This document shows positions 5,155 through 48,290 of a stretch of DNA of 61,900 nt, piece by piece. Within the stretch, counting starts at the first letter, position 1; each line of letters begins with the position of its first letter. The DNA is from Hydrolagus affinis (taxonomy: Eukaryota), in contig JAAILG010001778.1 of NCBI GenBank assembly GCA_012026655.1, positions 1 through 61,900 on the forward strand, in the 5' to 3' direction. The position numbers and the translations under genes are program-made. The notes beneath the pieces are model-generated. The model saw only the letters and a program-made list of their open reading frames with translations. It was not told the DNA's origin and did not search any database.

Positions 5155-5908
5155 CTGGGAAAACAGAAAAACAGTCAACGTTGAAGTGTTCTCCCGACAG
5201 AAACTATTGATAGTGATGTGAAAAAAAACACCAACACCTTTCCCAACAGGGACACGGGTACCACTGAGTTCCTTGCATTATTTCATACATCGCAGTTTGA
5301 AGTTATTCATGTAGCACCCAAAACTGTCTCCAAACAGATATTAATCCAGTTGACTTTTCATGAACTAATCCACTCATTTTGTTGAGTGATTGTTTCACAT
5401 CTCCATTGCTCAATAGGAAGAAATATCGTCTAATCTCTCATTTTGCTTCAGGCTGGTTAATTTTAAACCACTATTCTCCTGTTCTGCTCTAATGATCGAG
5501 TAGCCTTACTTACATCTATCTACATCATCTATGCCTCAGAGCAATTTAAGATGCAGGGCTTCAATCCTGTGAGAATCTGATGATTCAGATTGGATGAACG
5601 GTTAAAAAAAAACTGACAATGTACTTTTATAGATGGTACCATCAACACACTAAACGTAAATATTAAATATTATACACATCGCCGATAATATGCTACATCA
5701 AACTAATCTTAAGCTTCGACTAAATATTAAACCATTGTTGAAAACTCAATGAGTATTTTATTTTTAAACTGTTGACAAGCATATTGATGTATTGCATCCA
5801 TTGTACTGCAGAATCTCAAGCTAGAACACCAGAATCTCAAGCTGAACTGAAGCTTTAGACAATTTCCCCTGAGTGATGTACCCCTCTGAGCAGCAATGTT
5901 ACTGTGAC

Positions 5909-6019
5909 AAAACACAAATACTGCAGATGCTGGAAACCTGAACCCAATGAATGAAACGTTGACTCACTTTACTTTTCTGATCTGCTGAGGCTTCTCAGCG
6001 ACTTTTGCTTTTGTTTCAG
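5909..6019. mobile_element. Short inverted Penelope-like insert with target-site duplication
   Basis: Inverted fragments of the same family as 12538; flanked by TGTTACTGTGAC (5897-5908) and TGTTACCGTGAC (6020-6031). Confidence 0.7.
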
Positions 6020-6113
6020 TGTTACCGTGACGCTATGTTGCCGGCATCACATTCCTACAGGTACAATGCTAGCATGGATTCACAGAAAAATTCTGGTCAC
6101 AGTCAACACTCAC

Positions 6114-6199
6114 CCGTACGCTCCATTACTGATCAGCTTCATGGTTTCAAAATCACTTTCGCGGGGCTTACGCCGACTTTGCACTGAGGGACCGAAGCT
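6114..6199 (-). CDS. MAST4: MAST4 exon (SFGPSVQSRRKPRESDFETMKLISNGAYG), start of kinase domain and Gly-loop
   Basis: 86 nt; cag/gtgagt; phases 0/2; MAST-type ISNGAYG loop. Confidence 0.96.
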
Positions 6200-6639
6200 C
6201 TGTGTAGAACAAGTAGAAAACAATATTAAAACTGAGGCAGGATGGAACAAGTGTAGCTAGTTGGCTGAGTCATGGCACGGAGTGGAATGTCCCCACAAAT
6301 GTTAATTATCACATCACACTTGAAAGTTTTTTTACCCAATCGTTAGTCTTCCCAACTCTGCTTGGATAACCACAAGCTGTGATACTTACTCTGTTGGTGG
6401 GGCGGGGGTTGGAATTCTCTGAGGAGAGTATGGCTGTTGTACAGAAATATCTAAATTAATAACATTGGTAGAATGCTGGGCAGACTACCTCAAGTGTATT
6501 GGCTGGCCATGGTATATACATCATGTACATATATCCACATATCCATATATAAGGTACATATATCACGTCATCGAGAATTCTCAAAGTACTGTACTTCACA
6601 GGAAATACCATAAAGTAGATTGACTGATGATTTATTTTT

Positions 6640-6950
6640 GTGGGTGAAATTGCGCATAACAATGTCCGACAAACAGCTATGAAATGAGTGGCTAATTTTA
6701 TTTGGGGGATTCTTGACTAGGAATCAGGGGGATTCTCCCTTCTCTTGTCAAATAGTGCCATGAGATCTTCAACATCCATCTGAACAGGTAGACAGGACCT
6801 TGGTTTCATGGTTCATCTGAACGACAGCACCTCTGACAACGCAACACACCACCAGCATTGCATTGTTAGACAATGTGATTTCAAGTTCCGACATGGGGTT
6901 TGAACCCACAACCTTCAGAAGCCAGTGCAACTAACTACTGAGCCCAGCTC
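6640..6950 (-). mobile_element. Longer SacSINE1-like tRNA SINE
   Basis: Reverse-complement head with GGGTTCAAACCCC B box and the GACAGCACCTC / AATAGTGCCATGAGATC body shared with the 32829 copy. Confidence 0.65.
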
Positions 6951-45127: not shown

Positions 45128-45436
45128 ATAATAATTCTTGCATTTGATATAGCATTTATCATGTCTTCTAGATGTCTCAAAGCGCTTCACAGAATATATT
45201 GTAAAGTAAATTGACTATATATTTGTGGATGAAATGTGGCAGCCAATTTCGCAGAGCAGTGTCCCACAAACAGTCGTGGATTGAGTGACAAATTTTATTA
45301 GTGTTTTTTTTTCTTGAGGGATTATTATCAGGTGTGTGATGTAAGGAAACTTGACCAAGGTTTCGCCTTGCCATGAATCAAACCCAGATCTCTGGCTTGT
45401 GAGGCAGGTACTCTAACCACTGAGTTACAGGGCTCC
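45128..45436 (-). mobile_element. Full-length tRNA-derived Deu-type SINE
   Basis: Same head, core and tail as the 2210 copy. Confidence 0.85.
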
Positions 45437-45784
45437 ACAAAAAATTGGTGGTTATCAATTTATAATTTTGTAACAAGATGTACTGTATATGACACATTGA
45501 TAATGGTGACATATTGGTTTGAATTTGGAGAAGTAAATCAGAAGCAAAAATTCCAAATCCTGAAATCTTTTTAAATAGTTTCCAAACATTTCTAGGCAAA
45601 ATTTCAGAGGTCCTTGTATCAACTAAAACAAACATAGGAAGATTCACCAGGAGCATCTGAAACACACTGACCTTTGTATCAAATAAAGTAATGCGACTGT
45701 CTTAAAAAGTTAGAAAATTTGAGGAGAAAAGAGAACATTTGCTGAAAGGAACAGACGCATTTCTGAAGAAAGCAGAAATAAATA

Positions 45785-46060
45785 TAATAATAATCCTTGC
45801 ATTTGATATAGCACTTTTCATGTCTTCCAGATTCTCAAAGCGCTTCCCAGAATATACTGTAAAGTGAACTGACTGTATATTTGTGGGCGAAACGTGGCAG
45901 CCAGTGTCCCACAAACAGTCATGGATTGAAATGACCAATTATTTTGGGGGGAGGGATTATTTTTAGGCGTGTGGAGTAAGGAAACTTGCCAAGGTTTCGC
46001 CCTGACCTGTCTGAATTCGAACACAGGTCTCACGCTTGTAAACCATTGAGTTACAGGACT
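45785..46060 (-). mobile_element. tRNA-derived Deu-type SINE with small deletions
   Basis: Same family by visual alignment. Confidence 0.82.
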
Positions 46061-47551
46061 TCAATGTTGTTGCCCAAGGCACAAAACAAACTCCAGGCCC
46101 TTTCATGAGCCTAGAAATTGTGAAACTTTTGGTTTGGGTTGTCAAATCATGGGGAATAAAAACTGCAATGATCACACTGAATTAAAATTAACTTCCCCGA
46201 TGTCCTCAGTCCAACTGCACACAAAGCAGCGTCCCTAGTTGTGCCCTGGAGGGACATCACTCAACAATCACAATAAAATAACTTCCAAACCGAGAGTATT
46301 TTTTTCACATTGCTGAGTAACTTTAAGTTTGAAGTTTACCACTATGTGAAATCCTAGTCCTACTTTGCCCTAGAGCATTTTTTCAGAAAGATTTTCAACA
46401 GACATACGGAGTTCTTCACCTTTCTTGAAGGCTCAATTTCCCTGGGTGTTACTGGATGCCATCCCTACATCAACACCACCTGCAATTCTATTGTTAGTTT
46501 GCAGAACCAATAAACTACAATGCCATAGTATTGAGAGAACACAATGCTCCTGCCTAATTAGTCGGTCTGTACCAACTAAAAAAATTATCTCCCAATTGAG
46601 CCTTGAAAAATGGCAGCTAAAATCTGTAATTAGAAGTATGAAAACATGCATTTTTTTCACTAGCAATGTTTGAAACAGGTGCAGAAAATAGGAGGAGAGG
46701 AATAGCATTCCCAGTTTAAAAGCATTGTATTCAAACAACTTATCCATATTGGAGTCCAGTAGGTACCCTGTTACAAACAGAAAGATTCCGATTCGAAATG
46801 GATCTTCAAGAAAATGGGAGCATAAATGCTGTCTCAGAGCCAGAAAATGTGCCCAAGAATATAATGTGCATCTCTGGAGGGACTGCTTACATATAGAATT
46901 TGTCTACGACTATCTCAAATTAGTCTACGCTCTCTACGCTCTCTGAGGTCAGAGTGATGAACATGAGGTTCCTTTGAGGAGGCTCAATTTACATAATAAA
47001 TCACTGTTACACGTGTTGGACATTATGATGCTCTTTTTCCTGACAAGTGCTTTTTCAGATGATTCTGCGCTAAGTGTAAACCATGTGAAAATCCATGGAT
47101 ACAGTATATAGGAAATACAGGCATCTTTACTTAATCAATGAAAAGGATTCATTAAATTGCACAAATCCTTTCTATTGGTTCATGACTATATTTACACCTT
47201 TACATATGGTTTACATATAATGATAATATACTGTACCTACATTTGCACATAGTTTACATACTGAATAATCGATAGTATTGTCCTAGCAACTAATGTCAGA
47301 TGTTAAGTACAATGTTGGAGTTAATTCCCATAGTTTGTGAGCCAGTGGACCATGTTGTTCGCAATTTCAATTATCCATCAAGTTGTGGGGTGGGGTGGTG
47401 CGGGGGCCTTCTCTCCACCATGGCAGATGATCAAAATTTCACTTCAACTGCCTATAGCCACCGACCCAGCTGCTGACTTCCCATCCCTTTCCCTTGACTC
47501 TTACTGTTTCTCTCTCTATGACAAGTTCAACAGATCTCTAAAGTGATTTGT

Positions 47552-47779
47552 AAACTGCAAAATACTGCAGATGCTGGAAATCTGAAACAAAACCAGAGAC
47601 TCCTGGGAACACTGAGCAGGCTAGGCAGCATCTATGCAGAAAGGAAGTGGGTCAACATTTCAGGTTCACGACTCTTCGTCAGAATGAAGGGTGGTGCACC
47701 CAAAACGTTGACTCACTTTCCTTTTTCCATGGATGCTACTGGACTTCTTGAGCGTTCCCAGCAACCTCCGTTTTTGTTT
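47552..47779. mobile_element. Palindromic Penelope-like insert with target-site duplication
   Basis: Diverged inverted arms of the 12538 family; flanks CTAAAGTGATTTGT (47538-47551) and CTAAAGTTATTTGT (47780-47793). Confidence 0.75.
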
Positions 47780-48290
47780 CTAAAGTTATTTGTGTTTGCC
47801 AAATCGAAAAAGAAACAAAAACACACTGAAATCTGGAGGTATATGAAGGTAAATGTTTGGATTTTTAAACCCTACAGCGCACCTGTGAGAAACAATCATT
47901 CCATTGTTTCTACCCTTAAATATTAAAATGCTGAAAAAAAAACACCAGTCTACTTCAAACACTCACATACATTTGCAAAACAATAAAAACAGTTTGCAGG
48001 GTTAGCAAATACAATCTCCCTTGACTAACTGTGCCCAGTGCTCAGTTTGCTAGGTTACCATTCTACAGCTAGTGTATACAGCAACTTAAATCATTGGAAG
48101 CAATGGTGGCTTTCAAGTTGTAAATACAAACATCTGTGAACTTTGTAGCTTTGTAAAATTGCAAATAGAAGAATCATAATTGCTTAATATGAAACCAACT
48201 GTTACAACAACAATAACAACAACAAAATTACATTTGTATAACACTTTTCACGTCGGGAGGACGTCACAAACTACTACAGGTTAAAATTAC

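Follow-up and report, generated by a model that had tools for sequence, protein, structure and literature searches.

Inverted copies of the pseudo-long-terminal repeat (pLTR), with target-site duplications (TSDs), a tail and palindromes at the junction, have been described for Penelope-like retroelements (PMC3846280, PMC8557442). In Pen2a and Pen2 of Adineta vaga (PMC3846280), in the elements of PMC8557442 and in Penelope of Drosophila virilis (PMC2377424), the inverted pLTRs stand head to head and a TSD surrounds the unit. Endonuclease-positive Penelope-like elements also show partial tandems, heavy 5′ truncation and AT-rich targets, and their optional tail at one end has 34 bp in the D. virilis element and 31 bp in that of A. 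vaga, the general range being 30–40 bp. We found the head-to-head pLTRs with a TSD around the unit, the partial tandems, the 5′ truncation, the AT-rich targets and the one-sided tail, here of 34 nt, in a family of repeats present in a 61,900-nucleotide stretch of Hydrolagus affinis DNA (contig JAAILG010001778.1, hereafter the window). The repeats almost certainly represent the pLTR, the end that carries the hammerhead, of a Penelope-like retroelement with an endonuclease, and were inverted at integration. The layout and the class are already described, and as a sequence feature the locus is ordinary; what is new here is the counts on 80 insertions, and the value of the family lies in this large natural data set.

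Four copies in the window (copies 1–4, Table 1) each consist of two opposed arms with their 5′ ends inward (head-to-head), and each has its own TSD of 10–14 bp, as the first-pass annotation of this DNA had proposed. Element positions are numbered from window position 12648 (+1, the T of TCTGACGA), +135 being window position 12782. The TSD scores of the four copies were 9, 11, 12 and 12, whereas 11 of 2,000 random window pairs reached 9 and 1 of 2,000 reached 11. The inner ends are at +2/−4 in copy 2, +1/−1 in copy 3 and 0/+7 in copy 4, all at the CTGA motif, and at +99/+23 in copy 1, where a 10-nt filler separates the arms; the claim that three of the copies are broken at CTGA is therefore correct. 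As for the outer ends, one arm of copies 1, 2 and 4 ends near +135 and the other at +101 to +103, and the second arm of copy 3 is too degenerate beyond +40 for its outer end to be placed. The tail-less arm of copy 2 has every base of the minimal hammerhead core and little of the 5′ strand of helix I, and the hammerhead of its tailed arm carries a G16.2-to-A change at a CpG. More decayed relatives had also been suggested near 4540 and 34100. The first is a fifth, older copy, which is single-armed and direct, so that "all inverted" does not hold for every copy in the window; the second was not confirmed, with no profile match at E ≤ 0.01 and 59% identity in alignment.

The autonomous partner anticipated by the first-pass annotation, with reverse transcriptase (RT) and GIY-YIG domains and ending in the same sequence, was found in the assembly (1.11 Gb, 245,464 contigs). 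A genome search with the arm gave 40 scored loci at 96–100% identity, the tailed arm of copy 2 being 97–99% identical to 39 others, and several of the 30 arm loci fetched continue upstream into a GIY-YIG-type C-terminus and an RT. A protein search gave 157 matches, 150 of them among the matches listed; 10 coding loci were fetched, and in 8 of these the arm lies downstream of the coding stretch (L031, L032, L034–L037, L039, L040). The locus L035/L147 holds a TSD-flanked copy of about 3.1 kb that consists of an upstream pLTR piece (+58 to +135), the body and a full pLTR with tail, and its arm is 95% identical to that of copy 2. The pLTR thus occurs as a partial tandem in L147, and in most of the 27 loci that hold the body start, the tail likewise comes before the body. 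Each of the 10 coding loci is split into several frames; relatives have single open reading frames of about 730–1260 aa. RVT_1 matches in L035 and L036 (E ~2e-6; 1.5e-6 for L035) fell just under the Pfam cut-off, and Pfam GIY-YIG did not match the decayed frames of this genome's own copies. Over 399 aa, a stretch that takes in the GIY-YIG region, the frame of L037 shares 42% identity with P0009, a protein above the Pfam cut-offs for both RVT_1 and GIY-YIG. Pfam gave nothing useful on four short frames of L030/L021, a PDB sequence search with the L035 frame gave 0 matches, and none of the 16 Rfam matches in the window was to a hammerhead family. In L035, L036 and L037 a zinc-finger linker, CQRRRCNTC, lies between RT and endonuclease and fits CX2-5CxxC, which suggests the Neptune/Nematis type. 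In both of those clades, too, a C-terminal GIY-YIG follows such a linker (PMC8557442).

The number of copies allowed us to study how they end. The exact 23-mer at +65 to +87 occurs 3,537 times in the assembly, and the first 100 of these 3,537 pattern rows (contigs C2–C203) gave 80 insertions, all fetched and analysed; the sample represents the young subfamily on large contigs. By hand, L062 was reoriented and one separate neighbouring piece in L132 was dropped; L063 and L138 have imprecise segments and were kept. Inverted copies made up 54 of the 80 insertions and direct copies 26, and after correction for two chances of a match the inverted share is ~63%, with ~3,700 young insertions. A profile search of 20 blind 10-kb stretches (199,700 bases) found 4 insertions (reversed control, 0), which gives a genome-wide estimate of roughly 20,000 copies (Poisson range 6,000–57,000). 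This is about 1 per 50 kb, so that the abundance suggested from one copy per 10–15 kb in the window was overestimated about 3–4 fold. No ratio was formed from the pattern counts 666 (continuous upstream) and 1,212 (core), since the two cannot be compared.

The flanking duplications are above chance: a TSD score of at least 9 was reached in 58/80 insertions (43/54 inverted, 15/26 direct) and in 5/600 mismatched pairs. Tabulation of TSD length and target composition gave lengths of 9–18 bp, with 13–15 bp in 40/58 compared with 8–10 bp in the A. vaga examples (PMC3846280), and an AT-rich content (31% GC versus 41% in the flanks) with T or A as first base in 47/58.

We then looked at the outer ends. 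In 50/54 inverted copies, one arm ends at +126 to +135 (tailed) and the other at +88 to +108 (tail-less), and none of the 54 has two tails. The direct copies end either at +133 to +135 (13/26) or at +98 to +106 (13/26); since they stop at the same two places, about +100 and +135, which are separated by 34 nt, each count as an independent end. Two such sites are known from the Poseidon element PAc of Anolis carolinensis, for which two RT start sites bound the tail in vitro and both strands are cleaved and extended, with AT-rich targets and a dispensable ribozyme cut (PMC11167929). The two outer ends found here match those start sites and the cleavage and extension of both strands. PAc belongs to another clade, in which a zinc-finger linker is unexpected, and the parts of PMC11167929 covered do not derive inverted units from the two starts and leave the later steps unvalidated.

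The junctions differ from copy to copy: 52 distinct ones were found in the 54 inverted copies, which, together with the individual TSDs, bears out the idea that the inversion arises copy by copy. They comprise 16 overlaps, 2 blunt joints and 36 with filler, and 17 of the 21 fillers of 7–30 nt match the element (7.4 expected). The arms are 93.9% identical within one insertion as against 90.9% between insertions, and arms of one insertion share alleles in 41/42 cases at +89 and in 37/38 at +60, meaning that both come from one source. Their reach is often unequal. In 22 copies the inverted arm surpasses the tailed arm on the 5′ side by more than 10 nt, the tailed arm is the longer in 10, and the two are level in 22. 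The arms hardly overlap in L141, L127, L111 and window copy 1, and L149 combines a ~1.96-kb tail-less inverted arm with a 0.4-kb tailed arm. Copies with a longer inverted arm are not older than level ones (p 0.43).

At the inner end, a sharp limit was observed at the edge of the ribozyme. We used our own hammerhead numbering, set against PMC4209133, which places core C3 at +2 and the predicted cut after +30, helix I being predicted to pair −2 to +1 with +31 to +34. By inspection, the minimal type-I core is complete in 30 of the 73 arms that cover it. As in the metazoan pLTR hammerheads of PMC4209133, there is an extra base between 9 and 10.1, a G10.1–C11.1 pair, a palindromic minimal helix III and a helix I of 4 bp; unlike in those hammerheads, helix II has about 5 bp. 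The active form was not obtained in single-strand folds of the motif, and core conservation (97% at non-CpG core sites versus 96% at +40 to +63) tells nothing on selection in copies so young. The 5′ ends fall at −10 to +8 in 74/134 cases (33/54 inverted arms, 25/54 forward arms and 16/26 direct copies) and at +26 to +36, around the predicted cut, in 4/134, that is, a per-base stop rate of 0.076 (74/95 at risk) compared with 0.0032 (4/116). When ends were walked base by base, 39/40 lay at −3 to +2 and 1/40 at −4. Direct copies often adjoin their TSD at this limit, which is therefore no alignment artefact. Read depth on L147 falls 4–6.5 fold there in 4/4 runs, with loose ends at −1 to −3; the runs represent at most 3 samples, one of which (X1) is perhaps the assembly's own source and hence not independent. 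In pairs with both arms reaching the limit, 18 have both arms stopping, 5 have both running through and 0 are mixed (Fisher p 3e-5); with pLTR-anchored pairs only, the figures are 16/0/0/3 (p 0.001). As direct copies stop at the same place, the limit is a property of the 5′ terminus of the template, not of the inversion or of self-cleavage. We regard it, with some confidence, as the 5′ end of an RNA at about −3/−2. The sequence CCAGTTC at the limit matches the initiator consensus, a weak match of 7 letters. An internal promoter of the initiator/downstream-promoter-element (Inr/DPE) type lies in the pLTR of D. virilis Penelope (PMC2377424).

Both the limit (−3 to −1) and the tail boundary (+92 to +103) coincide with a pyrimidine tract plus CAG that resembles a splice acceptor; no splicing was seen. 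A spliceosomal intron occurs in some endonuclease-positive Penelope-like elements. Among the 27 body-start loci, L152, L154, L155, L161, L163 and L165 are TSD-flanked composites of a pLTR, a variable 5′ body and a second pLTR, in which the variable body end is joined to a pLTR from −1 to −4; in L153 and L157 the joined pLTR starts further upstream than −4. At the composite joints the AG is retained and a GT donor is absent, as expected of end-to-end template jumps, which the composites look like; they also resemble one-unit retrozyme precursors. Splicing into the CAG as the cause of the limit was rejected on these joints, and no such splice was present in the 15 of 48 read joints listed.

The explanation that we favour, with moderate confidence, is that the copies are separate insertions of the pLTR end, each becoming a mirror image through two primings on element RNA at integration. 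The GIY-YIG domain would nick both target strands about 14 bp apart; one nick would prime a cDNA at the tail end (+135) and the other at the tail start (about +100), and both cDNAs would be extended toward the template's 5′ end. Most templates would be short RNAs that begin at about −3/−2, at helix I of the ribozyme, where the initiator-like CCAGTTC would be a likely internal start site, and the others long read-through RNAs. The cDNA ends would then be joined by microhomology or by templated-filler end-joining, gap filling would leave the TSD, and priming by one nick alone would give a direct copy, tailed or tail-less. Ribozyme self-cleavage would play no part in setting the ends. That the present family combines two-site starts with cutting of both strands is suggested by single steps known from the other clade. 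More specifically, and only tentatively, a probably dimeric enzyme could use both nicks to start two cDNAs, at the two boundaries of the tail, on short RNAs whose start is the first base of the ribozyme, in which case the inverted pLTR and the one-sided tail found across the class would come from one event and the ribozyme cut would be irrelevant. We count as support the end common to the copies and the RT plus GIY-YIG partner, the individual AT-rich TSDs, the shared template class and alleles, the two fixed outer ends, the hard inner limit at about −3 and the variable junctions. In L1 twin priming, two target nicks prime two cDNAs, which leads to a 5′ inversion, a TSD and an untidy junction; the present copies differ in having a fixed second priming site (~+100) and, as a rule, arms with an overlap of up to 100 nt. 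A two-priming account of the inverted unit and a 5′ limit at helix I were not found in the literature searched; older reviews of Penelope structure, outside that search, may state the two-priming idea.

Two primings are, in our judgement, probable when set against their main rival, a fold-back, the plain form of which had been offered for the window and is close to the self-priming advanced as a hypothesis for inverted pLTRs (PMC3846280). A cDNA started at +135 would reach the template 5′ end, snap back at the small palindrome CAG-TT-CTG just before the core and be copied out to ~+100, and loss of the hairpin centre, at that time or later, would yield asymmetric copies. Common alleles and a common template class of the arms follow from this directly, as do the level copies and those with a longer tailed arm; the overlapping junctions, of a few bases each, also fit, three of them sharing an identical overlap. 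Sequence missing from a tailed cDNA cannot, however, appear in its hairpin copy, nor can the tail appear in a hairpin copy of a tail-less cDNA. The 22 copies with inverted-arm sequence absent from the tailed arm, including L141, L127, L111, copy 1 and the kilobase-long L149, thus call either for two primings or for a lost centre, and the similar age of asymmetric and symmetric copies, the fillers at two thirds of the junctions (36/54) and the independent end at +100 in tail-less direct copies all speak against a fold-back, which we consider unlikely.

Several points nevertheless weigh against two primings. Fold-back is consistent with as many as 32/54 inverted copies (the 22 symmetric ones and the 10 whose tailed arm is the longer), and the other 22 could result if a palindrome lost its centre; shared alleles and a shared template class are equally expected from both accounts. 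Arms that overlap by ~100 nt require strand displacement or two RNAs, both hypothetical, and 4/54 inverted copies are irregular, without the two standard outer ends. The in vitro data come from a Poseidon-clade element, other than the present family. An arm-sized inversion is present in only 7/30 top-identity loci, which were picked by the tailed arm, versus the 54/80 of the pattern-picked sample; this lower share perhaps arises because young perfect palindromes dropped out of the assembly, or because the subfamilies differ. At the limit itself, 8 ends lie at −3 and 7 at −2, so that the initiator A is not singled out, and RNA reads (two runs of one sample, organism uncertain), which cannot reveal a start site, gave no place where many molecules begin, their loose ends mirroring the genomic copies. 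Over L147:400–1400, RNA reads of runs X3 and X4 are ~3:1 strand-biased on the body and near 1.3:1 on the pLTR; given the uncertain library orientation and organism, this is a hint that the body is transcribed directionally.

Could the ribozyme itself set the end, as the phrase "ribozyme-defined end" in the first-pass annotation implied? Either cleavage would make the RNA end, or, on long RNAs, the fold or a bound protein would stall the RT when it meets helix I. The limit does coincide with the first base of helix I, and the minimal hammerhead motif is complete in the 30 of 73 arms given above, but the ends gather at the CTGA motif, which precedes the predicted cleavage site by ~30 nt. With 4/134 ends around that cut and 16/26 direct copies stopping at the limit, the cleavage site was rejected as the breakpoint. 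A stall should yield mixed pairs, of which there are 0/23, and insertion in vitro by the Anolis element was unchanged in ribozyme mutants (PMC11167929). We therefore regard this explanation as improbable. Cleavage and circles had been proposed as a processing route, one not mirrored in the present end map; minimal hammerheads are mostly solo, and pairs on opposite strands had already been noted (PMC4209133).

Slightly less probable still is a descent of the short copies from a single short non-autonomous master or a small number of them, resembling a short interspersed nuclear element (SINE) or a retrozyme and possibly palindromic, instead of from transcripts of the autonomous element. Such masters would account for the 64/80 insertions that hold no more than the pLTR end, and for an exact body-start motif that occurs 27 times compared with 3,537 for the arm motif. 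However, the same four-site haplotypes occur in short and long copies, the junctions are nearly all distinct, and there is no common sequence upstream of −3. A single palindromic master was rejected on the variable junctions and the individual TSDs, in agreement with the first-pass annotation. A non-LTR retrozyme, with head-to-tail tandem units that each have a hammerhead, was rejected too, as 0/80 sampled insertions are tandem arrays and the 27 body-start loci contain two-pLTR composites only; the retrozyme preprint 10.64898/2026.07.22.740005, in the portion available, does not mention sharks or treat inversions. Finally, a DNA transposon of the type of miniature inverted-repeat transposable elements, with fixed inverted ends, would share the palindromic shape, but the inconstant TSDs of 9–18 bp, the 52/54 distinct junctions, the unequal arms, the 26/80 direct copies and the presence of the same end on an RT plus GIY-YIG element leave it practically no chance.

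Compared with the Penelope units described, most units here are pLTR-only stubs, and the counts on 80 copies concern a sharp 5′ limit found at helix I as well as the rule of one tail. They yield three predictions: that an inverted unit has one tail, that inverted arms do not nest within tailed ones, and that ribozyme cleavage has no bearing on the 5′ limit. If two primings are indeed at work, thousands of genomic stubs would record the missing step of Penelope-like transposition.

Table 1. Copies of the pLTR family in the window, with their arms and flanking duplications (element positions as defined in the text; identities are to the reference copy).
Feature	Position	Strand	Remarks
Copy 1, left TSD	5897..5908	+	12 bp, 1 mismatch to right copy
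Copy 1, tailed arm	5907..5942	-	+99 to +135, little more than the 34-nt tail; 89% identity; first 2 bases common with TSD
Copy 1, tail-less arm	5953..6019	+	+23 to +103, 13-nt deletion, without CTGA core
Copy 1, right TSD	6020..6031	+	pairs with 5897..5908
Copy 2, left TSD	12524..12533	+	10 bp, exact
Copy 2, tail-less arm	12536..12635	-	+101 to +2
Copy 2, tailed arm	12643..12782	+	about −4 to +135
Copy 2, right TSD	12783..12792	+	exact match to left
Copy 3, left TSD	25534..25545	+	12 bp, exact
Copy 3, tail-less arm	25546..25615	-	+40 to +1 alignable at 25576-25615; degenerate over its outer 30 bases; core broken (G5)
Copy 3, tailed arm	25618..25760	+	−1 to +133 alignable to 25753; 80% identity; core broken (A6)
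Copy 3, right TSD	25761..25772	+	exact match to left
Copy 4, left TSD	47538..47551	+	14 bp, 1 mismatch
Copy 4, tailed arm	47552..47684	-	+132 to 0; decayed hammerhead; 77% identity
Copy 4, tail-less arm	47686..47780	+	+7 to +101; without CTGA core; 78% identity
Copy 4, right TSD	47780..47793	+	first base common with arm
Fifth, older copy	4540..4637	+	single direct tail-less arm from −3; not inverted; profile E 2.3e-13

Other repeats were observed beside this family. In the genome, eleven loci, mostly on small contigs (L162, L166–L172, L175–L177), agree in their upstream flank and in the Penelope 5′ piece that they have captured, a fragment carried within another multi-copy repeat or array. In the window, a 355-bp palindrome at 21170-21524 is 98% self-complementary, occurs once and has no similarity to the Penelope arm; it is possibly a fold-back DNA element. 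An abundant repeat of ~300 bp with many window copies has tRNA-like heads at 420-491, 2454-2525, 20784-20855, 45363-45434 and 59027-59098, and is likely a tRNA-derived SINE.

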